Shown here in pieces: positions 7,971-44,473 of a stretch of 64,000 nt of DNA. This DNA is from Bacteroidia bacterium. GTDB taxonomy: Bacteria; Bacteroidota; Bacteroidia; NS11-12g; UBA9320. A model generated the notes under the pieces. That model made no database searches. It was given only the letters and a program-made list of their open reading frames with translations, and was not told where the DNA came from. The first letter of the stretch is position 1, and each line of letters begins with the position of its first letter. A program made the position numbers and the translations under genes. The stretch is taken from assembly GCA_020053795.1 (NCBI GenBank), contig JAGVMN010000007.1, forward strand, positions 31,248 through 95,247, in the 5' to 3' direction.

Positions 7971-9192
7971 GGGTTAGTTCTTTTTCAACAGCATCGCTCA
8001 CAGAGTGGCAAATATATTCAAGATCGGAATCAGATAGTTGGGGGTAAACGGGGAGAGAAATTTCGCGGCTGTAGTTGTCGTATGCTTTGGGAAAGTTCTC
8101 AATATCAAATCCCATCTTCTTAAACAAAGTGAGCATCGGCAGCGGAATAAAATGCACATTAACCGAAACGCCCGTTTTGGAGATTTCATCCATGATCTTG
8201 TCACGTTGATTTTCTGCTATGCCTTTGATGATAAGCATATAGAGATGGCAGGAACTGGTTTGGTTTTCGCCCGTATAAGGTGGATTAATGGCCCACTTTT
8301 TATCAGAGAAATATTTTAGGTAATATTCAAAAACCCGTTTTCTTTCCTGTTGCAACTGATCATATTTTTTCAATTGGGCCAACCCGATAGCAGCACAAAC
8401 ATCTGGCATGTTCACCTTATGACCCAGGGCAATAATATCGTATTTCCAGGCTCCGGGACCCGACTGTGATTTGGTGAAGGCATCCTTGGTTTGACCATTG
8501 AGGCTGAAAATCTTCAGGTACTTTTTGGTTTCCTGCACCTCAAATACCTCGGGTAAATTGATGCAGATGGCACCTCCTTCGGCTGTGGTAAGATTCTTCA
8601 CGGCGTGAAAGGAATAAATAACAATGTCCGCATCGAAATTAAAATGCCTGCCTTTATAAATAGATCCGAAAGAATGAGCCGCATCGGCCAATACAAGTAT
8701 TCGCCCTAACTTTTTTTGAACGTCAGTGGCAGGTTTGAACAAATGTTTTTTGTTGGCAACCAAAGCTTTAATTGAATCATAATCTGCCAACCAGCCACCA
8801 ATATCAACCGGCATGATAACTTTTGTTTTTTCGGTGATTACCTGTGCTATTTTTTTAGGGTCAATAGTGAAATCATCTTTAACATCAACCAGAACCGGGG
8901 TTGCCCCGCAGTGTAAAACCGTTAAGGCCGTTGCACTGTATGTATAAGCGGGAACTATAACTTCATCGCCCGGCCCGACGCCAAACCACTTAAGCATCAA
9001 CAAAGCTCCGGAAGTCCAAGAATTGACACATATACAGGCAGCAGCACCGGTGTATTTCTCAACGGCTTCCTCAAGGGCTTTGACCTTTGGCCCGCTGGTA
9101 ATCCATCCGGATGAAAGTGATTCTTTTACTTCGGCATAAACGTCTTCGTCTATGAATGGTGGTGAGAATGGAATTGATTTCATGGCAATCAA
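7951..9192 (-). CDS. DegT/DnrJ/EryC1/StrS family PLP-dependent sugar aminotransferase
   Basis: ADAAHSFGS and the SFHAVKNLTTAEGGAI motif (PLP lysine). Confidence 0.75.
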   Translation of the reverse strand: MIAMKSIPFSPPFIDEDVYAEVKESLSSGWITSGPKVKALEEAVEKYTGAAACICVNSWTSGALLMLKWFGVGPGDEVIVPAYTYSATALTVLHCGATPVLVDVKDDFTIDPKKIAQVITEKTKVIMPVDIGGWLADYDSIKALVANKKHLFKPATDVQKKLGRILVLADAAHSFGSIYKGRHFNFDADIVIYSFHAVKNLTTAEGGAICINLPEVFEVQETKKYLKIFSLNGQTKDAFTKSQSGPGAWKYDIIALGHKVNMPDVCAAIGLAQLKKYDQLQQERKRVFEYYLKYFSDKKWAINPPYTGENQTSSCHLYMLIIKGIAENQRDKIMDEISKTGVSVNVHFIPLPMLTLFKKMGFDIENFPKAYDNYSREISLPVYPQLSDSDLEYICHSVSDAVEKELTLGKTSF

Positions 9193-9201
9193 AAATCAGT
9201 A

Positions 9202-10149
9202 TTAAAGTAGTTTCCGCAATCCTAATAGAAACCCCAGTCCATAACCTATATGAACGGTTAGGTAGGCTATAAATACCAGGAACATCAGTTTGATGCTCTT
9301 CGCACTTTTGATAGCAAAAAAGGCACAAAGAGCCAGATAAATTAAAAGTGGGAACTTAGACACCCAGCCCGGAATTAATATGCAAGCAATCAGATATAAG
9401 ACGAAAAGCGATGGTACTATATGTCTGAGGCGGATACCGGATTTTATTTTCCTAAGTACCATTGGCTTGTACAGACCATAATCGTAATACTGTTTAAACA
9501 AACCCGAAACTGTGTTTCTCGGATAATAGAAAAGTTTGATATCCGGATTCTGATAAATTTTGAATCCCAGACTCCTCGCCCGATAGTGAAACTCATCGTC
9601 CTGATTTCTTTTTTGCTTGACGTCAAAGAGGCCTGTCTTTTCGAAAATGCTTCTTTTCCAGCTTCCAAAAGTGACTGAATCGGTATATCCTTCAAAGGTT
9701 GTGTTGTGAACCGAACCATCACCCATCCCCAATGGTGTATTGAAAATATAGGCAACAGCTTCCTGAAACGGACTGTTTGATGCCGTTCGGGTCGGGCCAC
9801 CAACAATGTCTGCATCGGTAGTATCAAATGTCTTTAGAATTTGTTCGAAGTAGTCTTCCGCATAGTCAGTGTGGGCATCTAACCGAACGATATATTGTCC
9901 GGTACAAACCGGGATGGCCAGATTAAGGGCAAAAGGAACGGTTCTTTGAGGATTGCTGATGATCCGAATTTCGGGATTTGATGTTTGCCATTTTTTCAGA
10001 ATTTCAACCGTGCGATCCTTTGACATTCCGTCAATAAAGATAATCTCTTTGTTCGATGGAGAAGCCGTGGTAACAAATCGAAGTACCTTATCAAGGTAAT
10101 GCTCTTCGTTGTAAACCGGGCAGATAATTGAAATAACCGGATTGGTCAA
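9202..10149 (-). CDS. glycosyltransferase family 2 with C-terminal TM segments
   Basis: ISIICPVYNEE start and a DxD-containing GT-A core. The C-terminal section is hydrophobic. Confidence 0.7.
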   Translation of the reverse strand: MTNPVISIICPVYNEEHYLDKVLRFVTTASPSNKEIIFIDGMSKDRTVEILKKWQTSNPEIRIISNPQRTVPFALNLAIPVCTGQYIVRLDAHTDYAEDYFEQILKTFDTTDADIVGGPTRTASNSPFQEAVAYIFNTPLGMGDGSVHNTTFEGYTDSVTFGSWKRSIFEKTGLFDVKQKRNQDDEFHYRARSLGFKIYQNPDIKLFYYPRNTVSGLFKQYYDYGLYKPMVLRKIKSGIRLRHIVPSLFVLYLIACILIPGWVSKFPLLIYLALCAFFAIKSAKSIKLMFLVFIAYLTVHIGYGLGFLLGLRKLL

Positions 10150-10162
10150 ACTCAGATATTTG

Positions 10163-11137
10163 TTAGAGCGAATTCAGGCATTGATTCAACAACTCTTTCC
10201 TTCTTGCAATCGTAAAATTTTGGCCGATGTGATCGCTGATTTCATTCGGCGTATAAGGATAATCTGCAAGAGATTTAATCGCTTCAAGAATTCCGTCAAC
10301 GGAAAGTGATTTGATGACCAGGCCAAATTTACCAGTTACTTCTGGCAAGGCACCAATTGCTGTAACCACGGGAATGCATCCGGCCATCATCGCTTCCGCT
10401 ACACTCATCCCGAACCCTTCGTGCAGGGATGGTTGCAAGTATATTTTGCTTTTTTGATAGAGAGCCGTCAAGTCCTGATCTGTAACATAACCCAAAAATT
10501 CAAGGTTATTGGGGGCATTTTGTTTAAGGGTTTGGATGCTGTCGTCAATCCAGCGTCCGGCTTGCAGAAACCGATATTCCGGCATCAAAACGGCAGCCTC
10601 TGCAAATGGTTTAATTCCCTTTCGGTGCATGTTTTCCCGGCTTACGTTCCCGACATTTAATACGATATTCTCTTTGGGTTTTGGATTAAATTGTTTCGCA
10701 GGAATTCCGTGATAAATAACCCTGATCTTGTTTTGAAAACCATGGTTGATTCCGATCACTTCATTTTTAGTAAAATCGGAATTGCAAATGAGCAGATCAG
10801 CTTTTTTTAGATTCCAGTTCGTCACAAAACGACTGAACCACTTTCGCTGATTCCCGTAGCCGATTTCTTGCAGATTTGCGGTATCATACCCTCCGGTGAC
10901 TATGACCACAGGCTTTTTAAATAGTTTTGCCAGAAAAACAGGCAAAACCATGTGCCAGGAAGAAAACCAACCAAAGACAATATCGCAATCTCTGGCATTG
11001 CGAATGGTTTCAAATGGTCGAAGTTTCCATTTTGATCTGACATCCAATTCATGCACGTCAAACAATTCCCGAAGAATGTGGAGATCAATTCTGACGAATG
11101 CCGTCTGCCTGTTATGGACGAAAAGTAGTTTTTTCAA
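10163..11137 (-). CDS. glycosyltransferase family 4
   Basis: EGFGMSVAEAMMAGCIPVVTAIGALPEV motif. Confidence 0.7.
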   Translation of the reverse strand: MKKLLFVHNRQTAFVRIDLHILRELFDVHELDVRSKWKLRPFETIRNARDCDIVFGWFSSWHMVLPVFLAKLFKKPVVIVTGGYDTANLQEIGYGNQRKWFSRFVTNWNLKKADLLICNSDFTKNEVIGINHGFQNKIRVIYHGIPAKQFNPKPKENIVLNVGNVSRENMHRKGIKPFAEAAVLMPEYRFLQAGRWIDDSIQTLKQNAPNNLEFLGYVTDQDLTALYQKSKIYLQPSLHEGFGMSVAEAMMAGCIPVVTAIGALPEVTGKFGLVIKSLSVDGILEAIKSLADYPYTPNEISDHIGQNFTIARRKELLNQCLNSL

Positions 11138-12327
11138 TGGGAAACCATTTTATCAATTACTGTTTCAATGGATTTCCCGTAAATATCCAATCCATATCTC
11201 GTTTCCACCCAGGCTCTATTGTCATTTCCGCATTCATTTCGAAACGCAGTGTCTTCAAATCTATTAATAGCTTCCGTTATTTGAGATATGTTTTTATTCT
11301 CAAAAATAAGCGTTCCCGGGTTTCCCTTTACTGATTCGGCCAGTCCGGGTAAATTACTTACAGCCACCGGCAAACCTGCTGCCCATGCGGCGATAAGAGA
11401 AAGTGGCATCGTATCTTTTTCCACAGATGGGTAAATAAATACATCCATGGCCGCAAGGACTGATCCCAAATCTTCCCTGTTTCCGGTCATGATTACCTTT
11501 TCCTCCAAATGATGGTTTCGAATGTATTCACGAAGTGAATCTTCGTAACTCTTGTTTGTAAACAGGGCAGCACCGACAAGAATTAAATGACAGTTGGGGT
11601 TGGTCTCGGCATATTTTTTAAATGCTTCCAGCAACAGGTGCTGGCCTTTCCATGGAATCAAGCGGGCAGCGTGACCTATGACAAATGAATGCTCCGAAAT
11701 TTTGAATTCCTGACGGATTTTGATCCTATCCTCTGGTTTATAGAATGCATCCAGGTCTATTCCGTTGAGCACCACATCAGACTTCTTCTCGACCCTGGCA
11801 GGTAATTGTTCGATCATTGGTTGTTCACCCATGATTCTGTTGGGCAACGCAGCAGCAAGCAAGCCAAAAAACCATCTAAAAAACCCACCAAATCTGGGAC
11901 TGATCAAATCCTGAAGGTGCCAAACGGATGAGATTCCGGAAATTCTTGCCGCTAGAGATCCGCAAATATGTGCGTGAATACCTTTTGTGATGACGATGTC
12001 GGGATTATGAAGTTGAAATATTTTTCGGAAGTCTGCTATTTGCAATGGAATAATCAAAACATTCCATAAAAGCCCCGGAATGTTTGGAATCCTTATACGA
12101 TCCCTCATTACAGAAATGCTGCTTGAAACAAGGCTTCTTTTATGGTATAGCAAGACATTCATTTGGTGATCCACACACCTACGATAGAAGGGCCCATCAC
12201 CCGGAATTAAAAGGGTTGCCTCGATATTTTGATGCTTCAGAAAATAGGTGGCAAGATAAAAGGAGCTGAACTGAACACCGCCCATATCGCCGGCGTCTTC
12301 AACAATAAGGCAGCGAATTTTTGTCAT
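11134..12327 (-). CDS. glycosyltransferase family 4
   Basis: N-terminal GGVQ motif. C-terminal SLIAAWAAGLPVAVSNLPGLAESV. Confidence 0.7.
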   Translation of the reverse strand: MTKIRCLIVEDAGDMGGVQFSSFYLATYFLKHQNIEATLLIPGDGPFYRRCVDHQMNVLLYHKRSLVSSSISVMRDRIRIPNIPGLLWNVLIIPLQIADFRKIFQLHNPDIVITKGIHAHICGSLAARISGISSVWHLQDLISPRFGGFFRWFFGLLAAALPNRIMGEQPMIEQLPARVEKKSDVVLNGIDLDAFYKPEDRIKIRQEFKISEHSFVIGHAARLIPWKGQHLLLEAFKKYAETNPNCHLILVGAALFTNKSYEDSLREYIRNHHLEEKVIMTGNREDLGSVLAAMDVFIYPSVEKDTMPLSLIAAWAAGLPVAVSNLPGLAESVKGNPGTLIFENKNISQITEAINRFEDTAFRNECGNDNRAWVETRYGLDIYGKSIETVIDKMVSH

Positions 12328-13106
12328 TTACCAGAAGGACTTTTTCCTAAATTCAGTACTTCCATTTCTTTTAGTTTGGAATGCGAAAGAAAGTAATAGA
12401 AGGCGGTATATCTGGCCAGAAAAAAACCACGCCAACCATCTCTAAAACCTTGAAGATATAAGTAGCGATGCAGAAAAATAAGTAGCGGAAAAAATAGCCA
12501 TTTTAAATAACCGAACTTGCGGTTATTCTTTTTCAGTTCATCAGCTTCATATCTTGTGTACCGATCTAAATTCTTCAGTTGTTTTGAAATATCGGGCATT
12601 CCAAAGTGAAGGAGATGGCAGGGGAGCGTCTCTACTGTGCCGCTCACTTTGAAATTGGAGTGAACCTCCCTGTCGAACCATTGGCCTTTGTTTTTTCTGA
12701 AAAGCCTGTGTTCCCAGTCAGGGTAAATGCCCCCATATCTGACCCATTTGCCCAGCATGTGGTTTTTTCGAGCCATTCGAAAGCAGTCAATTTCAATGGT
12801 GGCATTTTCAATAGCATTTCTTATAATGTTTTCCGCATCAGGCTCAAGAACCTCGTCGGAGTCTATTTGGAAAACCCACTCGTGGGAGCATGATGGAAGT
12901 GCCCAATTCTTTTGTTTAGCAGAATTGAGGTATTCATGTTGAAGAATCTGAACCTTGTATTCATTGGCGATGTCGAGGGTATTGTCGGTACTATAGGAAT
13001 CAACAATCACAATTTCATCTGCCCACTTAACAGACTCAAGTGCAGCTCTGATGGAACTACCGCAATTATAAGTTGGCAGCAATATGCTCAGTTTTTTCCT
13101 GTTCAT
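12324..13106 (-). CDS. glycosyltransferase family 2
   Basis: LSILLPTYNCGSSI start, DSYSTDNT and DSDE motifs. Confidence 0.7.
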   Translation of the reverse strand: MNRKKLSILLPTYNCGSSIRAALESVKWADEIVIVDSYSTDNTLDIANEYKVQILQHEYLNSAKQKNWALPSCSHEWVFQIDSDEVLEPDAENIIRNAIENATIEIDCFRMARKNHMLGKWVRYGGIYPDWEHRLFRKNKGQWFDREVHSNFKVSGTVETLPCHLLHFGMPDISKQLKNLDRYTRYEADELKKNNRKFGYLKWLFFPLLIFLHRYLYLQGFRDGWRGFFLARYTAFYYFLSHSKLKEMEVLNLGKSPSGK

Positions 13107-35224: not shown

Positions 35225-36070
35225 TTAGGCCACATCGGCAAATATTTTTTCCATTCGCTTAAAATAGAAAGCCCCGAAAACGAAGATAATAACCGAAATG
35301 ACTCCACCGGTTAGTATCCAATCCCAGGGCATCGGTTGCGTTGAAAGAAACATGGAACGGAATCCTTCAATAACACCTACCATGGGATTAAGACTATACC
35401 AAAACTGATACTTTACTGGGATGGATGAGGATGCATACACGACCGGTGCAGCATACAAAAGGATTTGAACCAAAAAACCAATGGCATGTTTTACATCGCG
35501 ATATTGCACTGCCATAGCCGAAAGTATCATTCCCAAGCCAAGCGAAAACATGATCATTATTATCATCAAAATTGGCAGGAAGACTACCTCCCACGAGGGT
35601 GTTAGGCCAAAGTAAAATAAAAGAGCAATGAGCAGTAAAAACGCGATGGCAAAGTCCAACAGCTTTGCAAATGCTGCTGAGATAGGTAAAATCAATCTTG
35701 GGAAATAAACTTTGGTGATCATGTTTGAATTTGAAACCAGACTATTGGCGGCTTCAGTCAGGGTATTCGAAAAATAACTCCAGGGCAACATGGCCGCAAA
35801 ACTGAAAATAAGGTAGGGTGCACCATCTGAACTTATCTGAGCAACGTTCCCAAAAACAATTGTAAAGATGAGGGTTGTGAAAAGTGGTTGAATAATCGCC
35901 CAACTAATACCCAATATGGATTGGGCATACCGGGCCTTTATTCCTCTGACGACCATGTAGTACAACAAATCCTGGTATCGGATCAACTCACGCCAGTCTA
36001 TTAATTGCCATCCTTTTGAGGGCTCGATTACCTGAATTTTTGTGGCTGGTGTGTTCATGCTGATTTCCAA
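35225..36070 (-). CDS. wzm: ABC-2 type polysaccharide export permease Wzm
   Basis: 281 aa, 6 TM helices, next to wzt with ABC-2 topology. Confidence 0.8.
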   Translation of the reverse strand: MEISMNTPATKIQVIEPSKGWQLIDWRELIRYQDLLYYMVVRGIKARYAQSILGISWAIIQPLFTTLIFTIVFGNVAQISSDGAPYLIFSFAAMLPWSYFSNTLTEAANSLVSNSNMITKVYFPRLILPISAAFAKLLDFAIAFLLLIALLFYFGLTPSWEVVFLPILMIIMIMFSLGLGMILSAMAVQYRDVKHAIGFLVQILLYAAPVVYASSSIPVKYQFWYSLNPMVGVIEGFRSMFLSTQPMPWDWILTGGVISVIIFVFGAFYFKRMEKIFADVA

Positions 36071-36582
36071 AGGAGTAGTAAGGGTTGTGGTTCCTGATTT
36101 ATTTTGTTGAGGTCTTCCATGGCATAGGTCACGTATCGAATTTTTCTGCTGATTAACTTTTCAGCTTTTTCGACAAGCTGGCTGAGGTATTGGCGGTCTA
36201 TATTCCCGACAAGAATGATGTCTATAATATTGCTGTCGGAACCTTTGGCAAAGCTGCCACTCAGATAAACCAACTCAAGATTGCCCAGATTTTCGATTAC
36301 ATTCTCAACAACCTTATCAATGCCTACATGTTTCAGCAGTATATTATTGATGTCTTTGAACAACGGGTGTTTAGTATTGGCTTTGAAAAGTTTTTTGTTT
36401 CCCTCTAACTCCGTCGTCAGCAGACCCGCATCTTCAAAGCGATTTAGCTCAACCCGAATGGCATTGCTCGATTCCCCAAATTCCTCTTCAAGCCCGCGTA
36501 AATAAGAGGTGGTCTTACTGTTTAAGAAGAATTTAAGCAGCAGTTTTACTCTTGTTTTTGATGTGATGAGTGTGTCGAGCAA
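36055..36582 (-). CDS. winged-HTH / nucleotidyltransferase-domain fusion protein
   Basis: N-terminal wHTH (TSKTRVKLLLKFF...YLRGLEEEFGESSNAIRVELNRFEDAGLL). C-terminal minimal NTase motif GSFAKGSDSNIIDIILVG. It overlaps the wzm start by 16 nt. Confidence 0.5.
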   Translation of the reverse strand: MLDTLITSKTRVKLLLKFFLNSKTTSYLRGLEEEFGESSNAIRVELNRFEDAGLLTTELEGNKKLFKANTKHPLFKDINNILLKHVGIDKVVENVIENLGNLELVYLSGSFAKGSDSNIIDIILVGNIDRQYLSQLVEKAEKLISRKIRYVTYAMEDLNKINQEPQPLLLLWKSA

Positions 36583-36721: not shown

Positions 36722-37063
36722 TTATTCTTTCCCGAGGACTTCAGAAATTTGCTCGAACAGTTCAGGAATTTTATTTTTAACAACGTCCCAAACTATTAAG
36801 TAGTTTACTCCCATGTAGTCGTGAATTAATCTGTCTCTCATTCCTGCAATATTTTTCCATGTAATTGAACTCCATTTAACTTTGAAATCTGCAGGAATCT
36901 TTTTTGATGCTTCTCCAATAATCTCAAGGCTTCTTACAACAGCTCTCTTTAAGGTCTCATCTTGCAAAAACTTCTCTTTTGAAACTTTAGAGTCAATAAC
37001 CGACAAAACAAAAGAGCATTCATCCCGAATGTGTTTGACATATTCGAGTGGGTCCTTAGGCAT
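36722..37063 (-). CDS. hepT: HepT (HEPN-domain) toxin of a HepT/MntA type VII TA pair
   Basis: Rx4HxY motif RDRLIHDY. Size is 113 aa and it overlaps the NTase partner by 8 nt. Confidence 0.75.
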   Translation of the reverse strand: MPKDPLEYVKHIRDECSFVLSVIDSKVSKEKFLQDETLKRAVVRSLEIIGEASKKIPADFKVKWSSITWKNIAGMRDRLIHDYMGVNYLIVWDVVKNKIPELFEQISEVLGKE

Positions 37064-37370
37064 AAATTACTTCGTTCAAAATTTTTGGCCCGATATAAGG
37101 GCTTAAACCATTCCTCGTAACAACCTCAACTCTTTCATGTTTGAACAAGTTCTCAAAAAGGTCGCATACGGCCATATAATTGTCGAAACTCTCTTTCCCA
37201 GGGTGGAAGTCAATTAATAAATCAATATCACTCTTGACCGACTGTTCGTTTCTCAGATAGGAGCCAAATAATCCAACATTAGAAATCCCAAGCCGTGACA
37301 GTTCAGATTTGTGAATTTTAATTTGTTCCAAAATATTCTCCTTCGTTGTCATGCTCAAACTGCGAATCAA
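37056..37370 (-). CDS. mntA: MntA nucleotidyltransferase antitoxin
   Basis: GSYLRNEQSVKSDIDLLIDF matches the GSx9-13DxD motif of minimal NTases. Size is 104 aa. Confidence 0.75.
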   Translation of the reverse strand: MIRSLSMTTKENILEQIKIHKSELSRLGISNVGLFGSYLRNEQSVKSDIDLLIDFHPGKESFDNYMAVCDLFENLFKHERVEVVTRNGLSPYIGPKILNEVIYA

Positions 37371-37508: not shown

Positions 37509-38135
37509 CTATTGCAAACCCCTTGTTAGCAGCAGTAATTCATTCAATAATTGTGAATTACCGAAATCTGTTTCTGTTATTTCATTTGTCTGAATGTCTA
37601 ATGTTTTCCATAGCCCAATTTTTTTTCCATTGAAGTAAACTCCCTTTTCAAAAGTTAATCGATCACATTGAAGATATGTCGCAATCCCTATATGTTGATC
37701 TTTATATTTAAGTCCTCGGTAAGTATGTAAAGCCCCCTTTTTAACTAACTCAATATTTTTTATTGGACAAGTTTCTCCATTAGCCATGTACTCAGTGGAT
37801 GGAGATTGATAGTAAAAGGCAACAGTATCTGATCTGTCTTTAGTAATTCCAATAGCTTTGACTCTTTCACCCTTAAAGTAGAAAAATTGATCAATGTATA
37901 TTTCTGTTGAATCTGTTGATATTGAATCATAGTCCAAAGCGTTAACCTCATTTATAGTTTTTATTCTTTGGTTTTTTGTCCAAACCTCTATCTCAGTATT
38001 GATTTCCAAATTATTGATTCCAATTGGATTTAAATCTTCTTCAGCTGGTGTGATAATCGCTTTGGTTTCATTATAACTTTGACAAGAAGCAAGAAATACT
38101 AGGATGCTAATCGTGATTGAAAGTTTCATTCTCAT
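37509..38135 (-). CDS. hypothetical lipoprotein
   Basis: Signal peptide ending LASC (lipobox). No recognisable catalytic motif. Confidence 0.5.
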   Translation of the reverse strand: MRMKLSITISILVFLASCQSYNETKAIITPAEEDLNPIGINNLEINTEIEVWTKNQRIKTINEVNALDYDSISTDSTEIYIDQFFYFKGERVKAIGITKDRSDTVAFYYQSPSTEYMANGETCPIKNIELVKKGALHTYRGLKYKDQHIGIATYLQCDRLTFEKGVYFNGKKIGLWKTLDIQTNEITETDFGNSQLLNELLLLTRGLQ

Positions 38136-38221: not shown

Positions 38222-39571
38222 TCAGACCACAAGTCTTTTTTTCTTAAACCTATCCGAAAAATCTATTTGTTCTTTGATCTGAATTTTCGCCGGAATTTTA
38301 TAGCGGTCAAGACGTTCGGAACAATGTTTTTTGATAACCGATTTTATGGTTAAAGGGTCAATACCCTTTTCCAACGAAACGTTAACAGCCACAATTTGTC
38401 CGGTTATTGAATTTGGCAGCCCGAAAGCTATACAGTCTGTTACTCCATCTATTTCCATCACCACTGATTCAACCTCGGCAGGTAATACTTTTTCTCCGCC
38501 AACGTTGATGAGTTCTTTGGCCCGACCGGTGATTTTTAAAAATCCGTCTTCAGATTCTTCTACCAAATCGCCGGTTTTAAACCAGCCATCCTCAGTAAAA
38601 CTGTCCATATTATGGTTGAGGTAACCCATGATCTGTGTTTTACTTCTCAGCCATAGTTCGCCGTTCACAATTTGAAATTCCTGGTCGGGATCGTCAAATT
38701 TCAAAGAGGTGCTCTCTGACGATTTTGACTGGGTTTTGATGATTCCCGTTTCACTTGTTCCAAAAGTTTGCAAAAACTTTACCCTCAGAAAGGTGTCTTT
38801 CAGCTTTAATAAAAGACTGGCCGGCATCGGTTCTGTGCCATATGTTATCATTCTCAGACTGCTCAGATCATAAGTTTCCTGGCATTTGGCCATCAAAAGA
38901 AGATTCAGGAAAGTAGGGGAGGCCGGCAATACATTCACCTTGTATTTTTCAATCAACTGAGAAACCTTTTCAGGATTTCTGCTGGACGGCAATACTATTG
39001 TGGCACCCATTGCCAGACAATTTAGCAGCGTATTCAGCCCGCCAATATGATCAAACATCAGGAAAACAACGAATACAAGTGATTTGCTTTTCAGGTCCAG
39101 ATATGATTCTACCAAATTGTCGAGATCGTGAACCATGGCTTTTGGTTTTCCCGTGCTTCCACTGCTGAATAGAATCAACCCTGATCGGTTTCTTTGTCTT
39201 ATGGCATGTATAATCGCATGAACCTGATCGGGGAGAAACGTTTCCTTTTTATCGTTTCTCATATCATAGCATAGCGTTGCACCTGAAGCTTCTATTCTTT
39301 CTTTAATCTCCGCCTCATTTGTTGTCGTAATAGGGACACAGATTAATCCCCTTTTAAACATGGAAAGAAAAAAGGCGATGCTCTGAAAACTGTAATCACC
39401 TTTGAGAAAAGTGATGGTTCCGGGTGCAACCTGATCTTGTACCAATACTGAATCAAAATGTTGAATCTGTTCAAGAAGGTCTTTGTAGGTATATGAATTG
39501 TGATTTTCAATCAGAGAAATCTGATTGTCGTGATTTTTGAGGAGTTCTAATAGCCGTAGTGCTTCCCTCAT
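38222..39571 (-). CDS. AMP-dependent synthetase/ligase (acyl-AMP / acyl-carrier ligase)
   Basis: FSSGSTGKPK core motif, TYGTEP, GDL and GRAKELINVGGEKV motifs. Confidence 0.75.
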   Translation of the reverse strand: MREALRLLELLKNHDNQISLIENHNSYTYKDLLEQIQHFDSVLVQDQVAPGTITFLKGDYSFQSIAFFLSMFKRGLICVPITTTNEAEIKERIEASGATLCYDMRNDKKETFLPDQVHAIIHAIRQRNRSGLILFSSGSTGKPKAMVHDLDNLVESYLDLKSKSLVFVVFLMFDHIGGLNTLLNCLAMGATIVLPSSRNPEKVSQLIEKYKVNVLPASPTFLNLLLMAKCQETYDLSSLRMITYGTEPMPASLLLKLKDTFLRVKFLQTFGTSETGIIKTQSKSSESTSLKFDDPDQEFQIVNGELWLRSKTQIMGYLNHNMDSFTEDGWFKTGDLVEESEDGFLKITGRAKELINVGGEKVLPAEVESVVMEIDGVTDCIAFGLPNSITGQIVAVNVSLEKGIDPLTIKSVIKKHCSERLDRYKIPAKIQIKEQIDFSDRFKKKRLVV

Positions 39572-39572
39572 G

Positions 39573-40265
39573 CTAAAATACCCCGCCCAAATAAATCACC
39601 TGGCCGGTTATAAAACCGGATTCGGGTCTGATAAAAAACTCTATAGTGTTCAGTATATCGTCAAAGGTTCCTGGTCTTTTTATCGCCTGGCGATCAATCA
39701 ATTCGTTTATTTTGCCCTTGGGAATGGCTTTAATCAAATCGGTATCCGTTGGTGTGGGGCCAATGGCATTTACGGTAATTCCCAGTTTGCCTACCTCAGT
39801 TGCCATCACTCTTGTCAGAGATTCTACCGCCGATTTACTTGCTGCATAAACAGCTTCTCCTTCAAGGTTCAAGGGCACCGCGACAGTAGAAAAATTGATA
39901 ATTCGCCCCTGCTTTTTTTGCATCATTAGTTTGGCAGCTTCTCTGGAACACAAAAAGGTTCCTTTGAAATTGGTGTCGAACAATTTTGATACGGTACTTC
40001 CCGGAGTGAGTAACAAGTGATTCATTGACGCCATCCCTGCATTGTTGATCAGTACATCGAGTTCTTCTGTGTTTTTTCGAATTTTAGTAAACATGGCTTT
40101 AACCTGCATTTCATCGGCCACATCAGCTGTGAAATGGGTGTAGTTGTGATGAACAAGATCACTTTCAGAACGGCTACAGCCAAATACGACATGACCCTGA
40201 GACAAAAAATGTTCTGCCAGAAATCTGCCAATACCCTTTCTCGATCCGGTAATCAGAATGTTCAT
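39573..40265 (-). CDS. short-chain dehydrogenase/reductase (SDR)
   Basis: TGSRKGIGR Rossmann motif, NNAG motif and YAASKSAVESL catalytic YxxxK. Confidence 0.75.
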   Translation of the reverse strand: MNILITGSRKGIGRFLAEHFLSQGHVVFGCSRSESDLVHHNYTHFTADVADEMQVKAMFTKIRKNTEELDVLINNAGMASMNHLLLTPGSTVSKLFDTNFKGTFLCSREAAKLMMQKKQGRIINFSTVAVPLNLEGEAVYAASKSAVESLTRVMATEVGKLGITVNAIGPTPTDTDLIKAIPKGKINELIDRQAIKRPGTFDDILNTIEFFIRPESGFITGQVIYLGGVF

Positions 40266-40663
40266 TTTTCTGTCAGGTATGCAAATGATTGAGGTGGAAA
40301 TAATTTAAAGTCCGCTCTCAAACATTTTGGTTTTTTATACTTTATGGTATTCCTTATTTTAATAGCAAAACCTTGGTCTTTGTCTGCAAAGTATTTGTAG
40401 TAATAGTCTTCTGATATACCTGAATGTTCTTGTGTCAATGTCCAAAGAGTTTGCAGGTCATAGTTTAAAATATCTTCAATTTCAAACTCGCCAATAACTT
40501 GTTGAACCGGTGATGAAGCATAAACGATTACCGATTTGACGTTCTCGTTCTTGAATATTGATTTTCTAAACTCAAATTTCTTTGAGCCATCAAATATTTT
40601 AAAGGCAAATTCCGGTTTTATTGATAAAACTACTTTCATATTATTTTGTCCTGTTGTAAGCAA
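40262..40663 (-). CDS. ASCH (PUA-like) domain protein
   Basis: GSKKFEFR equals the GxKxxExR ASCH signature. Size is 133 aa. The upstream PIN-GNAT ORF overlaps its start by 23 nt. Confidence 0.6.
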   Translation of the reverse strand: MLTTGQNNMKVVLSIKPEFAFKIFDGSKKFEFRKSIFKNENVKSVIVYASSPVQQVIGEFEIEDILNYDLQTLWTLTQEHSGISEDYYYKYFADKDQGFAIKIRNTIKYKKPKCLRADFKLFPPQSFAYLTEK

Positions 40664-42167
40664 AATTGATTAAGTCGTCAAACTGCTTTGAAGTCAATTT
40701 TGCAAATCCTTTTGGTAAACTCATTGAGTCTGCGAATATGCCTAAGTTTATTAAATCATTCAATGTCGGTTTAGGTGTTGGTAAAGAATGTGCATAAAGG
40801 AAATTGATAATAAATGGCTTGTATTTTGGGAACTTGTTCCACCATTTGTCAAGCAAGTCTTCTTTGGGAATCATTGTTCTGCGATTGCAATTATTAAAAA
40901 AGTCATCAAAGTCTTTGAAACCATCTTTAATACTTTCAACTATGCAAATTGTAGTTAATGTGCTCGAATACTTTTTTGGTGCTGTTTCCCCAATTCTATA
41001 TATGAGAACAATGTCACCTGATTTTAAATTTCTGTCGGGTGAGTGAGAAATATACACCTTGCTAATTCTGTTTCTATGAGGTTCATTTTCGGTATATTTC
41101 GCCTTATCTTCTCTTGTATTTATACTGTCTGGGAATAATTCTGTGTGATATTGAGGTTCAATTCTAATGAGGTATTTATCTGTCTCCCTTGAGAAGAATG
41201 GGAATGTCAATTTTGGATTTTCGATGTTAACGGGTAAGTTCTTACCGAACTCTCTAACATAAACCAATTCTTCGCCATTTTTAGATGTTTTAATGCCATG
41301 CTGGTAAAAACCCCATTCTTCGAGCATCTCTATTAATTGTTCTTGCTCTGGTCGTTTATTAAAAATAGTGACGTAAATTTCTTCAACTCTAAAAAGTAAA
41401 GCATTATCAAAAACAGTTTTTAAAAATCGTTCGCCAATTTTATATCCATTGCTTGAAACCTTAAGAGTTCCAATTTTTAATCGTTTTTTTGGTTTAAATA
41501 CAGGCGTTATATCAGAATAATCTTCTTCTCCCGGTTTCTCAATTTTAATGTATAAAAAAGCCGTTAATTGATTGTCACTATAGCAAAGGTAACAAGGATG
41601 TTCCGCTTTGCTATTGAACCACTTGTCAAACTCTTGATAGTCGAGGCGAAAACTGTCGAAAAAACTGTCTTTCAAATCAACTTCGCCAAAGTCGACCTTT
41701 TTAACAGCCAAAACTTTGTGTGAAATAAGGTCAGGGTTCTCTGCGGTTACCTTTTCTAAGAAACTTTGAATTCTATAAACTCTGCCACCTATTCCAAGAA
41801 GATGAGCTTTAGTGTGTATTTTCTTATCTTCAGAAATTAAAAGGTCAATTCTGTTTTCAAATACTTCATTTAGGATTTGAGTATCGTTCAGATCATTCGG
41901 TGTATTGTCAACTTGTTGGCTAATTTGTTTGATTGTCTCGCTTAATGGTGCCTGATGTTTGAGTTGATTGTAACTTTCTATCTTGATATTCATTGACTTT
42001 AAAGAGTTCTGGTCTTTATACCTGTTTAACTCAATGATTGTCAAAGGATGAATGTATTTGTTGTATTTAAGTTTGTCGAGCCAATAGAATAGCTGTCCGA
42101 TGTCAAGTTTGTAAATCTTGTCAGCTTCCCTGTGAATTATAATATTGGTGTCGAGTAATACTTTCAC
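40641..42167 (-). CDS. multidomain PIN / GNAT-like / unknown C-terminal domain protein
   Basis: PIN: LLDTNIIIH (Asp1), IIELNRY (Glu), NDLNDTQ and IDLLISEDKKI (Asp3/4). The middle region resembles the GNAT acetyl-CoA site (KIGTLKVSSNGYKIGERFLK...NKRPEQEQLIEMLEEWGFYQHG). The C-terminal 170 aa match nothing I recognise. Confidence 0.45.
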   Translation of the reverse strand: MKVLLDTNIIIHREADKIYKLDIGQLFYWLDKLKYNKYIHPLTIIELNRYKDQNSLKSMNIKIESYNQLKHQAPLSETIKQISQQVDNTPNDLNDTQILNEVFENRIDLLISEDKKIHTKAHLLGIGGRVYRIQSFLEKVTAENPDLISHKVLAVKKVDFGEVDLKDSFFDSFRLDYQEFDKWFNSKAEHPCYLCYSDNQLTAFLYIKIEKPGEEDYSDITPVFKPKKRLKIGTLKVSSNGYKIGERFLKTVFDNALLFRVEEIYVTIFNKRPEQEQLIEMLEEWGFYQHGIKTSKNGEELVYVREFGKNLPVNIENPKLTFPFFSRETDKYLIRIEPQYHTELFPDSINTREDKAKYTENEPHRNRISKVYISHSPDRNLKSGDIVLIYRIGETAPKKYSSTLTTICIVESIKDGFKDFDDFFNNCNRRTMIPKEDLLDKWWNKFPKYKPFIINFLYAHSLPTPKPTLNDLINLGIFADSMSLPKGFAKLTSKQFDDLINFAYNRTK

Positions 42168-42178
42168 CTAATTCTGTT

Positions 42179-42502
42179 TCAAGTTTTGGTGTCGTCCTTT
42201 TGCATAGCACATAACTCCTCAATATATTCAACGAGTAACCCAACACTTGCAAAAGGACTTACGCGTCTGGACATGGCTTTCTCATCTGCCAGCACTATGG
42301 AAATTCCAAATTCATCTTCTATGGCTTCTTCAATACTGACTACCAGAGAAACAAGATCTATTGAGTCAAGGCCCGCGTCACCTCCAAAAAGGCGGGTGGC
42401 ATTGCCATTCTTTAAATCGATCTTGTTTTCTATTTCTTCATTGAACTGCAGGATTGTGTTGGTAACTACCTGATAAATCCGTTCTTTGGTATTCTGACTC
42501 AT
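42179..42502 (-). CDS. acyl carrier protein
   Basis: Phosphopantetheine attachment motif GLDSIDLV. Size is 107 aa. Confidence 0.7.
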   Translation of the reverse strand: MSQNTKERIYQVVTNTILQFNEEIENKIDLKNGNATRLFGGDAGLDSIDLVSLVVSIEEAIEDEFGISIVLADEKAMSRRVSPFASVGLLVEYIEELCAMQKDDTKT

Positions 42503-42531: not shown

Positions 42532-43065
42532 TTATCTGATTAAGATTCTCATGTATTTATTCAGCTTTTCCCGGAAGACCGATTTTTGCAATACGCCTTT
42601 GACGACGGATTTGTTCTCGGTATCATTAATCTCAAAGCCGAGGGATTTGTTAAACCTAATGGCAGGCATGTTGCTCGACAAAATGCTACATGAAACCGTT
42701 TCAAGATTCAGTTGTTCAAAACCGAATTCAAGTAAAGAAAAAACAGCTTTTGACGTATAGGCACTTCCCTGAGATTTCTCTCCGAACATAAATATGCCAT
42801 ATTCGGCAGTTTTCTTTTCATAATCAACATCTTTCAAGTCAACCAGTCCAATATTGCCCAAACCTGTTGTCTGAATCACAAAGTAGTAGTTGGCCCGGTT
42901 GTTTACCTTCTCAAACCAATGTGCCTGATCGTTTTCTGAAATTTCTGATTGATACACCATGAAGTTTTTAACCGAGCTGGAGTTTCTCCAATATCTCACT
43001 TCCTCCAAATGTTCAGCCTTCAGTCTGCTAAGTACGACGCCATAATTGGCAATTTCCATGATCAT
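42532..43065 (-). CDS. GNAT family N-acyltransferase (PseH-like size)
   Basis: 177 aa with GNAT fold motifs (YGIFMFGEKSQGSAYTSKAV...LGFE). Confidence 0.6.
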   Translation of the reverse strand: MIMEIANYGVVLSRLKAEHLEEVRYWRNSSSVKNFMVYQSEISENDQAHWFEKVNNRANYYFVIQTTGLGNIGLVDLKDVDYEKKTAEYGIFMFGEKSQGSAYTSKAVFSLLEFGFEQLNLETVSCSILSSNMPAIRFNKSLGFEINDTENKSVVKGVLQKSVFREKLNKYMRILIR

Positions 43066-43083
43066 GTTAATGAAAAATACATA

Positions 43084-44364
43084 TTAAAGCCTGCAGTCGA
43101 CCATTTCTTCGGTGAAGAATCCTTTAACATCGTAAACCAGGCCTTTAGCAGTCAATAGTTCCCTTGGGTTGATATGTTTGAACTCATTGTGCCCAACGGT
43201 CAGTACGACAACGTCATAAGCAGATGGTTCCATTTTAGTAACCAATTCAAGCCCGAACTCTGATTTAATTTCTTCGTTGTTTGCCCATGGATCGTAAACA
43301 GAAATAGCAATGGAATAGGCCATCAGTTCCCTGATTACGTCGATGACTTTAGTGTTTCTGATGTCTGTGCAGTTTTCCTTAAATGTGATCCCAAGTATCA
43401 GTGCTTTAGCAGCCTTTATATTGGTACCTTTTTTTATCATCTGCTTAACCACTTCGCCCGCAATGTAGGCTCCCATGCCATCGTTTGTGCGTCTGCCTGC
43501 CAAAATCAATTCAGGGTGATAACCCATCTCTTCTGCTTTTTGAGCCAGATAATAAGGATCCACACCGATGCAATGTCCGCCAACCAATCCCGGTTTAAAG
43601 GGTAAAAAGTTCCATTTTGTTCCCGCAGCTTCCAGCACAGCGTTGGTGTCTATATCCAACTTGTTGAATATTTTAGCGAGTTCGTTGACAAAAGCAATAT
43701 TGATGTCGCGTTGTGTATTCTCAATCACTTTTGCTGCTTCGGCAACTTTGATTGATGGGGCCCTGTGTGTGCCGGCGGTTATTACCGAAGCGTAAAGATC
43801 ATCAACACGTTCAGCGATTTCAGACGTAGAACCGGAAGTCACCTTTTTAACCCGTTCCACAGTGTGTAGCTTATCTCCTGGGTTTACCCTTTCAGGAGAA
43901 TAGCCCGCGAAAAAATCAATATTGTAACGAAGTCCGGAGCTTTTTTCCACCACTGGGATGCACTCTTCTTCTGTTGCACCCGGATATACGGTTGACTCGT
44001 AGATCACCAGGTCGCCCTTTGATAAAACCTTTCCAACAGTTTCGCTGGCAGCAACCAAATAACTGAGATCGGGAATATTCCTGAAATCAACTGGTGTAGG
44101 AACCGTAATGATATAAATATTGCATCCGGCAATGTCCTCGGTATCACAGCTAATGAAAAATCCGGGCTGACTCAGGTCAAGATTTTTTTTCAGTACCTGA
44201 TTCAGATTTTCGTCGGTAACTTCTAAAGTTAAATCGTTGCCGTTATTTAACTCATTGACCCGTTTCTGACTTATATCAAAACCAACAACGGGGTATTTCT
44301 TTGCAAAAGCAATGGCGAGTGGAAGCCCAACGTAGCCGAGGCCTATCATGCAGATTTTATTCAT
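43084..44364 (-). CDS. UDP-N-acetyl-D-glucosamine / nucleotide-sugar 6-dehydrogenase (WbpA/TviB-like), first gene of the locus
   Basis: N-terminal ICMIGLGYVGLPLAIAF NAD-binding motif. Central GGHCIGVDPYY (catalytic Cys). Size is 426 aa. Confidence 0.8.
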   Translation of the reverse strand: MNKICMIGLGYVGLPLAIAFAKKYPVVGFDISQKRVNELNNGNDLTLEVTDENLNQVLKKNLDLSQPGFFISCDTEDIAGCNIYIITVPTPVDFRNIPDLSYLVAASETVGKVLSKGDLVIYESTVYPGATEEECIPVVEKSSGLRYNIDFFAGYSPERVNPGDKLHTVERVKKVTSGSTSEIAERVDDLYASVITAGTHRAPSIKVAEAAKVIENTQRDINIAFVNELAKIFNKLDIDTNAVLEAAGTKWNFLPFKPGLVGGHCIGVDPYYLAQKAEEMGYHPELILAGRRTNDGMGAYIAGEVVKQMIKKGTNIKAAKALILGITFKENCTDIRNTKVIDVIRELMAYSIAISVYDPWANNEEIKSEFGLELVTKMEPSAYDVVVLTVGHNEFKHINPRELLTAKGLVYDVKGFFTEEMVDCRL

Positions 44365-44463: not shown

Positions 44464-44473
44464 TCAAAATTAC
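44464..44473 (-). promoter_or_regulatory. candidate Bacteroidetes -7 element (TAATTTTG, reverse strand) about 100 nt upstream of the dehydrogenase start
   Basis: Forward caaaatta at 44466-44473 reads TAATTTTG on the minus strand, matching the TAnnTTTG consensus. Confidence 0.25.

Follow-up and report, generated by a model that had tools for sequence, protein, structure and literature searches.

Operons that encode a (PIN)-GNAT-EVE protein together with an ASCH protein were described computationally by Bell et al. 2020 (BMC Biol 18:159, PMC7641849), who credited Iyer et al. 2013 (NAR 41:7635) with the first description. Nearly all of these operons encode an ASCH protein, and often also an AAA_17 ATPase. 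PIN-GNAT-EVE genes are closely associated with type I restriction-modification (R-M) and other defence systems, and an ASCH-HsdS fusion has been found. PIN-less GNAT-EVE proteins, which occur in prophages, were speculated to shield phages from host restriction. As of that report, no (PIN)-GNAT-EVE module had been experimentally characterised (PMC7641849). The genes are also catalogued in PADLOC as PDC-M11, one of the PDC sets, which comprise 145 untested candidates that guilt-by-embedding had singled out because the genes lie within BREX, DISARM or type I R-M loci (Payne et al. 2024, preprint 10.1101/2024.01.29.577857). In a 2025 GenBank record of Escherichia phage PhiR47_2 (PV340567.1), a PIN-less pair located between cI and kil is annotated as GevT toxin and GevA antitoxin. 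Here we analyse a gene pair of this kind in a 64,000-nucleotide stretch of a Bacteroidia bacterium genome (contig JAGVMN010000007.1, positions 31,248 to 95,247), referred to as the window. The PIN-GNAT-EVE open reading frame (ORF) is called gene A, the ASCH ORF gene B, and coordinates are positions in the window unless another locus is named.

Judged by profile matches, A and B are a copy of the already catalogued "(PIN)-GNAT-EVE + ASCH" or PDC-M11 candidate module, and not a new kind of system. Gene A matches the PADLOC profile PDLC04422 (PDC-M11A) with an E-value of 1.7e-203, residues 1-505 aligning with profile positions 1-494 of 501, and gene B matches PDLC04425 (PDC-M11B) with an E-value of 2.7e-51. 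Both proteins match end to end, the PDC-M11B-type ASCH gene is adjacent to gene A and shares its strand, and no structural difference from PDC-M11 was found. The initial annotation implied that the module was novel. This part is not upheld, the family having been described under each of the three headings given above (PMC7641849, PDC-M11 and the phage GevT/GevA record).

Gene B is 47% identical to GevA over the full length (E-value 2e-43; both proteins have 125 residues), and residues 160-503 of gene A are 36% identical to GevT (E-value 4e-59). The two pairs have the same gene order and tight linkage, but GevT has no N-terminal PIN domain (357 residues versus 508), and the phage pair is placed in the lambdoid immunity region. 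With the operons of Bell et al. the window pair shares the domain order PIN, GNAT, PUA-like/EVE and a separate ASCH gene, and the families are alike in the optional AAA_17 gene and in their associations with phages, plasmids and defence islands. In contrast to those operons, the window copy lacks the AAA_17 gene (a tblastn search of the window with the kinase-like protein gave no match), has no adjacent type I R-M or CRISPR genes and lies inside a glycan operon. Because the AAA_17 gene is optional, its absence does not affect family membership.

Taken together, A and B very probably form a mobile module of toxin-antitoxin (TA) or defence type belonging to a known family, and not a sugar enzyme. 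We consider it likely that the window holds a horizontally acquired, self-contained copy of the (PIN)-GNAT-EVE + ASCH module in which the effector A would be held in check by B.

Domains and active sites of the two proteins

Short motifs had led the initial annotation to propose PIN, GNAT and ASCH folds. All of the quoted motifs are present at the expected places: in gene A, LLDTNIIIH starts at residue 4, IIELNRY at 44, IDLLISEDKKI at 107, KIGTLKVSSNGYKIGERFLK at 231 and EEWGFYQHG at 283, and gene B carries the ASCH signature GSKKFEFR. The three folds, guessed from motifs, were all recovered, and the C-terminal residues of gene A that had been left unrecognised (170-200 residues) are, in the structural model, a PUA-like modified-base-reader fold of EVE type, the second PUA-like domain of the pair.

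Pfam alone is marginal for gene A, PIN_4 scoring under the cutoff with an E-value of 0.0019. The protein was modelled with AlphaFold from an alignment of 54 homologs (48-90% identity), which yielded a mean predicted local distance difference test (pLDDT) score of 81.8 and a predicted template modelling (pTM) score of 0.71. The N-terminal part adopts a PIN fold with conserved acidic active-site residues, D6, E46, D95 and D114 being invariant in 54/54 sequences. The nuclease is VapC-like, and no DNase domain was found in gene A. The central part adopts a GNAT fold. Between strand 229-237 and helix 241-258 it features the loop N240-G241-x3-G245-E246-R247, a variant of the CoA-pyrophosphate loop that occupies the position where GNATs bind the pyrophosphate of CoA and is invariant in the alignment.

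The C-terminal domain of gene A scored 11.1 against the EVE protein 2AR1, 10.4 against PH1033, 10.3 against THYN1 bound to 5-methylcytosine DNA and 10.1 against Rpa0253. Its structural neighbours include the reader domains of the restriction enzymes McrB, VcaM4I and PD-T4-3. Significance for Pfam EVE was not reached by sequence, and the assignment is one of fold. The domain is basic (isoelectric point (pI) 9.1) and is the most variable part of gene A among relatives. Sequence kinship with gene B was considered and rejected, as hhalign gave a probability of 0.2%; the two are alike at the level of fold only.

Full-length homologs support a start of gene A at the GTG at 42167. The sole database protein with 100% identity (P0005, JGI) has 450 residues and spans 89% of gene A. 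The source annotation apparently began the gene at an internal Met, which removes the first 58 codons (41994-42167) and, with them, the first PIN strand and D6.

For gene B, the initial annotation reported a 133-residue protein, the start of which overlaps the end of the 508-residue ORF by 23 nucleotides. Both ORFs exist, 133 residues being the longest reading of gene B, but the overlap does not stand. Most gene B homologs align from residue 9 of this ORF onward, as does the PADLOC profile, homologs start with MKVVLSIKPEF at an ATG, and the window sequence reads AAA TAA T ATG AAA GTA. For these reasons the ATG at 40639, which gives a protein of 125 residues, is most likely the start. The A-B junction would most likely consist of a stop codon, one nucleotide and a start codon, the overlap being a probable artefact of choosing the longest ORF. 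The two genes remain tightly coupled after this revision.

The match of gene B to Pfam ASCH is close to the limit (21.4 bits, with a cutoff of 21.2), and conservation within the family is high. Residues G18, K20, E23, R25, Y40 and S118 are conserved in at least 95% of 76 sequences, and the GxKxxExR octapeptide (G18, K20, E23, R25) is kept in 75 of the 76, the exception being a 4-residue fragment. The protein is basic, with a pI of 9.0. In ASCH proteins of the GxKxxExR class (TthASCH, EOLA1, TRIP4), the Lys and Glu residues are essential for removal of the acetyl group of N4-acetylcytidine (ac4C) in tRNA (preprint 10.64898/2026.02.27.708502). YqfB-type ac4C amidohydrolases belong to the ASCH GK[T/S]R class, feature Thr/Ser at the fifth position of the octapeptide (GxKxx[T/S]xR), are small and acidic, and act on the free nucleoside; gene B, a member of the GxKxxExR class, is not of this type.

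The sole biochemically studied member of the gene B subfamily is ZmASCH (ZMO0922; PDB 5GUQ, 5GUS, 5Y6B, 5Y6C), which matches the PDC-M11B profile with an E-value of 3e-29. By sequence, gene B matches the solved ZmASCH structure with E-values of about 1e-12 to 5e-13. ZmASCH resembles gene B in being a basic nucleic-acid-binding protein with the GxKxxExR motif. It binds nucleic acids and cleaves single-stranded RNA; binding involves both Tyr47 and Ser128, the former of which has a part in cleavage as well (PMC5615036). Equivalents of both residues are retained in gene B (Y40 and S118), but Lys53 of ZmASCH aligns with Q46. In the 2026 study, ZmASCH removed tRNA ac4C in vitro (preprint 10.64898/2026.02.27.708502). 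The reported activities disagree, the protein being an RNase in one study and an in vitro-only tRNA ac4C deacetylase in the other. ZmASCH was rejected as half of a canonical A-B pair, as the 375-residue upstream neighbour in Zymomonas has no similarity to gene A and no PADLOC match.

Gene B also matches (E-value 1.5e-14) the C-terminal "unknown domain" (profile positions 190-310) of NCBIfam NF008917, which is named "50S ribosomal protein L22/unknown domain fusion protein". Given this match, the ASCH domain of the gene B subfamily is fused to a ribosomal protein in some organisms, which hints at a connection with the ribosome or translation.

Position in the sugar operon and distribution of the family

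Genes A and B are located between the acyl carrier protein (ACP) gene and the FabG-like short-chain dehydrogenase/reductase (SDR) gene of a sugar N-acylation operon (ACP, SDR, AMP-ligase), and comparison of related loci strongly supports their insertion at this place. We analysed 80 metagenomic loci related to the window AMP-ligase (48-57% identity), 69 of which have both ACP and SDR homologs. The order ACP-SDR-ligase is conserved in these modules, and the ACP-SDR gap is at most 120 nucleotides long (median 29) in 66 of the 69. Neither gene A nor gene B was found in any of the 80 ACP-SDR-ligase modules. In the window, the gap measures ~1.9 kb and is filled by exactly A and B, which have a GC content of 0.33 (0.29-0.33 at third codon positions, GC3) versus 0.39-0.43 (GC3 0.40-0.47) in five neighbours. 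In the three exceptional loci, the gap hosts other selfish-type genes, encoding either a YhcG/DUF1016 PD-(D/E)xK nuclease or an ORF6N-domain protein. The ACP-SDR junction appears to be a recurrent landing site for selfish genes. Only short direct and inverted repeats at chance level were detected around the cassette, and no att or terminal-inverted-repeat signature was seen.

The reciprocal comparison was made on 80 reference-genome loci carrying gene A homologs, most from Bacteroidota and a few from other phyla. Homologs of the window ACP, PseH-like GNAT, AMP-ligase and UDP-sugar dehydrogenase were found in none of them (0/80), and A and B have no conserved co-occurrence with the sugar N-acylation module. 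In contrast, an ASCH gene is present directly downstream of the gene A homolog in 75/80 loci, the remaining 5 being cut by contig ends. The initial annotation had suggested that a selfish or defensive cassette was inserted into this locus, had judged the pair unlikely to be a sugar-pathway enzyme and had proposed to check whether it travels outside glycan loci. All three points are borne out, as ACP and SDR are adjacent in nearly all of the related modules, the pair has low GC and is missing from all of those modules, and the contexts of the homologs vary and include defence islands. Neither a lack of PIN and GNAT folds nor a constant embedding of homologs in glycan loci, either of which would speak for a biosynthetic role, was found. 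The flanking genes named at the time (ACP, GNAT, SDR, ligase and HepT/MntA) are as described, according to Pfam and NCBIfam.

The A-B linkage is obligate. Natural fusions of the two genes occur in both orders, ASCH-PIN-GNAT-EVE (P0252, 620 residues) and PIN-GNAT-EVE-ASCH (P0244, 632 residues), which is strong evidence that A and B act together as one unit. About a dozen representatives of ~620 residues are present among the clusters formed at 50% identity, and fusion to an N-terminal ASCH domain may define a recurrent subfamily.

Gene A homologs are widespread. An indexed search returned 4411 proteins at E-values of 1e-5 or lower, and an exhaustive search 1733 clusters at 50% identity (E-values of 0.001 or lower). 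Lengths cluster around 500, 350 (proteins without PIN) and 620 residues. Homologs are present in 16 phage records and 33 plasmid records, and also in PHROG families. The two closest relatives (93% and 89% identical) are located in unrelated contexts. Annotated surroundings of the homologs likewise share nothing with each other: the cassette is flanked by esterases and MntA/HepT pairs in a Marinilabiliales contig, lies in a clear defence island in Niabella soli (R-M system, SLFN-like helicase, MazG-like, DUF4365 and Fic genes), and maps to a housekeeping region near suf genes in Flavobacterium gyeonganense. We surveyed 150 flanking ORFs from 50 loci (two Flavobacterium representatives and other loci). 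They match 151 Pfam families, none of which recurs more than 4 times, and include scattered integrases, HNH nucleases, Dnd genes, methyltransferases and other PADLOC candidates. As the flanks are this heterogeneous, our claim is limited to variable contexts, some of them defence islands.

Two accessory genes recur. An adenylate-kinase-like P-loop gene (AAA_17/AAA_18) is found beside the cassette in 29/80 loci (e.g., L084 7480-8004). In loci with called genes it is translationally coupled upstream of gene A, and in L071 and L073 it follows gene B. The AAA_17 protein weakly matches the PADLOC VakA profile (E-value 9e-8). A third gene is located between A and B in 13/80 loci (e.g., L029 11494-12441 and L063 11491-12474). 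Its product of ~315-327 residues has a hydrophobic C-terminal segment, matches nothing in Pfam or PADLOC and may be a membrane-anchored accessory or effector protein. This middle gene is not present in the window.

In many Flavobacterium species (L012-L023, L032-L039, L044 and L080), a kinase-A-(middle gene)-B cassette occupies one conserved site (~9500-12800), adjoining a beta-lactamase-family gene and SufS. Comparison of L012 and L035 revealed identities of 88% in the PIN domain, 68% in the GNAT domain and 42% in the C-terminal domain, versus 99% in gene B and 93-96% in the flanking genes. As the fastest-evolving part among relatives, the C-terminal reader domain is the likely specificity determinant. 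Such a mosaic is what a specificity or sensor module would be expected to show if it underwent swapping or diversifying selection.

Two outlying loci were noted. In Neorhizobium sp. DT-125 (L169 2280-4902), an ASCH gene of PDC-M11B type overlaps the end of a gene for a 721-residue protein that has weak GNAT matches only and no PDC-M11A match; a Type ISP restriction gene, a reverse transcriptase, an integrase and a Prim-Pol gene are found nearby. The GNAT-ASCH partnership seems to extend past the PDC-M11A family. In Methanothermobacter phage psiM100 (AF301375.1 / NC_002628.3), a PIN-bearing gene A homolog (8233-9417; 29% identity over residues 1-391) lies within a feature annotated as "inserted fragment IFa". 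The module thus reaches archaeal viruses, where it is again flagged as an insertion.

The cassette is probably co-transcribed with the glycan operon. Between 40.2 and 44.7 kb, the Bacteroidota -7 motif (TAnnTTTG) was found only at ~44465-44472 (minus strand), just upstream of the UDP-sugar dehydrogenase gene, and at 41591 inside gene A; the motif evidence is suggestive and weak. Scans for sigma-70 promoters and terminators gave counts near chance, this type of scan being ill-suited to Bacteroidota.

Proposed activity and alternative explanations

GNAT toxins (TacAT, AtaRT, KacAT) acetylate aminoacyl-tRNA, and VapC toxins cleave tRNA or rRNA. Gene A shares the GNAT and PIN toxin folds with these systems. 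Their antitoxins are small DNA-binding proteins (such as ribbon-helix-helix or AbrB), whereas gene A is paired with an ASCH protein and joins both toxin-type domains to a PUA-like reader in one polypeptide. The arrangement is also not that of VapBC, in which a stand-alone PIN toxin follows a small antitoxin gene (VapB): PIN is here one part of a fusion with GNAT and EVE, the gene upstream is the ACP gene, and the ASCH partner is downstream. Type IV restriction enzymes link a PUA-like reader to a DNA endonuclease (HNH, PD-(D/E)xK, GIY-YIG) or to a GTPase/AAA motor; the pair has a reader fold, but its nuclease is a VapC-like PIN and no DNase domain was found. In DarT/DarG, the mark that the toxin places on nucleic acid is taken off enzymatically by the antitoxin. 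The logic proposed here for A/B is similar, and both systems are mobile and linked to defence, but DarT/DarG use ADP-ribosylation rather than acetylation, the folds are unrelated, and the writer/eraser activity of A/B is only predicted.

The mechanism that we propose builds on features that are directly supported, i.e., family identity, folds, conserved catalytic residues, A-B linkage and fusions, mobility and insertion; its substrate, the direction of the antagonism and the trigger are what we infer. Gene A would be a three-part effector. The basic, fast-evolving PUA-like/EVE domain would choose the nucleic-acid target, which is probably one particular base of RNA or DNA, modified or not. The GNAT domain would acetylate that target or a bound partner, e.g., a nucleobase amine or the aminoacyl group of charged tRNA, and the PIN domain, in which the acidic active site is intact, would cut RNA. 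Gene B keeps the Lys/Glu pair that is catalytic in other GxKxxExR ASCH deacetylases, and the most economical option is that it would restrain A by removing the acetyl mark, acting as an eraser comparable to DarG versus DarT. Alternatively, B may restrain A by occupying the same nucleic acid or by binding A directly. Once infection or stress disturbs the balance between A and B, translation and growth would cease, resulting in abortive-infection-type defence or in addiction.

A specific writer/eraser mechanism, argued from analogy, is possible but doubtful. In its most explicit form, A/B would be an acetyl-based immune module, the acetylation counterpart of DarTG, in which the hypervariable EVE-like domain picks a specific base in phage or host nucleic acid, the GNAT domain N-acetylates the nucleobase (e.g., cytosine N4) in RNA or DNA, the PIN domain cuts marked RNA, and the ASCH protein is the deacetylase that keeps the cell alive until infection. 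We regard this version as unlikely. If true, it would be the first immune effector to act by nucleic-acid acetylation and would give a bacterial ASCH deacetylase of the GKER class its first physiological role, and the 2026 finding of ASCH ac4C deacetylases (10.64898/2026.02.27.708502) makes the hypothesis testable.

Several points weigh against the view of an acquired module in which B restrains A. With respect to the insertion, the empty sites come from distant relatives (48-57% identity) and not from near-isogenic genomes, the cassette has no recognisable promoter of its own, the 11-nucleotide junction between ACP and gene A contains no Bacteroidota-type -7 motif, and the cassette lies in the window outside any classical defence island. 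With respect to function, PDC-M11 membership does not establish it, because the PDC systems are explicitly untested candidates (10.1101/2024.01.29.577857). The names GevT and GevA are database annotations for which no underlying paper was found in the searchable literature, and a literature search found no experimental evidence of toxicity, antitoxicity or phage defence for the PDC-M11/GevTA family. Catalytic competence of the GNAT domain is not assured, as its CoA loop is atypical. ZmASCH is inactive on the free ac4C nucleoside and did not significantly lower tRNA ac4C in vivo (10.64898/2026.02.27.708502), and it was first reported as an RNase (PMC5615036), so that the biochemical role of gene B is ambiguous. 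Moreover, Bell et al. 2020 (PMC7641849) leaned towards a regulatory, DNA-binding function of the ASCH protein.

In the main rival reading, B is a co-effector or co-sensor: A and B would jointly target nucleic acids in a modification-dependent manner, by means of two PUA-like readers, a PIN RNase and a possible RNase in B. Such a system would be closer to type IV restriction, directed against RNA or modified phage DNA, than to a TA pair. The chance of this being so is small, although several observations speak for it. ZmASCH, from the same ASCH subfamily, was reported as a Mg-dependent single-stranded RNA nuclease (PMC5615036), and B keeps both Y40 and S118; the structural neighbours of the gene A C-terminal domain include restriction-type readers (McrB, VcaM4I, PD-T4-3); single-polypeptide A-B fusions are unusual for a classical TA pair; and PIN-GNAT-EVE genes are associated with type I R-M, with ASCH also fused to HsdS (PMC7641849). 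However, the phage record labels the pair as toxin and antitoxin, PIN domains are typically RNases rather than DNases, nothing in this reading accounts for the universally conserved GNAT domain, and the invariant Lys/Glu dyad of B matches the deacetylase active site (10.64898/2026.02.27.708502). Restraint of A by B is the reading that we prefer.

In a glycan-pathway role, the GNAT domain would, for example, move an acyl group from ACP to an amino sugar, with the ASCH protein editing or deacylating it. The pair is tightly embedded, 11 nucleotides after the ACP stop and with the gene B stop overlapping the SDR start; it lies on the same strand as the operon with no promoter motif of its own, and the acyl-ACP, GNAT and hydrolase chemistries are superficially compatible. 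The reciprocal neighbourhood comparisons nevertheless effectively exclude a biosynthetic role, the sugar genes being present in 0/80 gene A loci, as described above, and the pair missing from all related modules, in which ACP and SDR are nearly always adjacent. The locus already owns a PseH-like GNAT, PIN and PUA-like domains are nucleic-acid modules, the pair differs from the locus in GC, phages carry homologs, and a YhcG nuclease or ORF6N protein occupies the same gap elsewhere; we hold this role to be hardly conceivable. It is improbable, to a lesser degree, that the pair is purely an addiction or selfish TA module, or a phage-derived counter-defence pair, with no anti-phage benefit to the host. 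Prophage genes next to cI, e.g., lambda rexAB, commonly act in superinfection exclusion. This speaks against a purely selfish role, whereas the presence of PIN-less GNAT-EVE + ASCH pairs in temperate phages, including the lambdoid pair between cI and kil, fits it, as do the insertion of the pair into unrelated operons and the speculation that phage GNAT-EVE protects phages from host restriction (PMC7641849). Also against it, PDC-M11 was picked up as embedded in BREX, DISARM or type I R-M (10.1101/2024.01.29.577857), and a hypervariable reader domain at a fixed chromosomal site resembles the arms-race evolution of a host sensor. Very improbable is a housekeeping RNA-modification writer/eraser that tunes tRNA or rRNA acetylation, e.g., ac4C. 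The known bacterial ac4C writer TmcA has a helicase-type ATPase module beside the GNAT domain and differs in architecture from gene A, and a patchy, mobile distribution, foreign GC, a fused PIN nuclease and carriage by phages and plasmids do not suit such a role. GNAT is, however, an acetyl-writer fold, and ASCH proteins from all domains of life deacetylate tRNA ac4C (10.64898/2026.02.27.708502).

As an instance, the window copy matters little, being one more member of a widespread, catalogued candidate family. The locus shows neatly how a defence/TA cassette sits without a seam in a biosynthetic operon, and other selfish genes use the junction as well. The PDC-M11 family is more interesting than the locus: two enzymatic domains of toxin type and two PUA-like domains come together in it, and it lends itself well to tests of whether nucleic-acid acetylation serves as an immune or toxin mechanism.

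Feature coordinates and neighbouring genes

The features of the locus are listed in the table. The glycan locus continues further downstream on the same strand to at least ~22 kb, with genes for a DegT aminotransferase, WbqC, a hexapeptide acyltransferase, an ATP-grasp enzyme, GT2 and GT4 glycosyltransferases and an ATP-binding cassette (ABC) exporter. The pair thus lies within a long co-directional glycan locus.

Table. Coordinates of genes A and B, their domains and junctions, and neighbouring genes; the last two rows refer to related loci.
Feature	Coordinates	Strand	Basis or remark
Gene A, 508-residue PIN-GNAT-EVE three-domain protein	40641..42167	minus	ORF; GTG start; stop codon 40641-40643
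PIN (VapC-like) nuclease domain of gene A, residues ~1-145	41733..42167	minus	
GNAT acetyltransferase-fold domain of gene A, residues ~150-311	41235..41720	minus	
C-terminal PUA-like (EVE/ASCH/YTH-type) predicted modified-base-reader fold of gene A, residues ~312-508	40644..41234	minus	
Gene B, 125-residue ASCH protein, GxKxxExR class	40262..40639	minus	start revised to ATG 40639
Gene B, longest ORF, 133 residues, TTG start	40262..40663	minus	ORF listing; TTG 40663 probably unused
Upstream insertion junction, 11-nucleotide spacer from ACP stop (TGA) to gene A GTG	42168..42178	minus	sequence
Downstream insertion junction, gene B stop overlapping SDR start (ATGA)	40262..40265	minus	sequence
ACP-like gene of the sugar N-acylation module; host gene, outside the cassette	42179..42502	minus	Pfam and NCBIfam
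FabG-like SDR; host gene, outside the cassette	39573..40265	minus	Pfam adh_short, E-value 1.6e-46
AMP-ligase, after SDR	38222..39571	minus	
PseH-like GNAT	42532..43065		
UDP-sugar dehydrogenase	43084..44364		
HepT/MntA pair (HEPN RNase and nucleotidyltransferase TA)	36722..37370	minus	
Selfish-type gene in the ACP-SDR gap of related modules	L152/L159 6266-7306		
Selfish-type gene in the ACP-SDR gap of a related module	L138 6716-7288		

The HepT/MntA pair is located ~2.9 kb downstream of the cassette, from which it is separated by the AMP-ligase and a 208-residue lipoprotein-like gene (37509-38135). The MntA protein matches the PADLOC candidate PDC-S09 (E-value 7e-32). Between the ABC exporter and HepT/MntA, a gene on the minus strand (36055-36582) encodes a 175-residue protein with winged-helix and Pol-beta-type nucleotidyltransferase regions, which matches the PADLOC candidate PDC-M05A (E-value 1.2e-26). 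The glycan locus carries, in all, three modules that are TA or defence candidates: the PDC-M11 pair, HepT/MntA and the PDC-M05A match.

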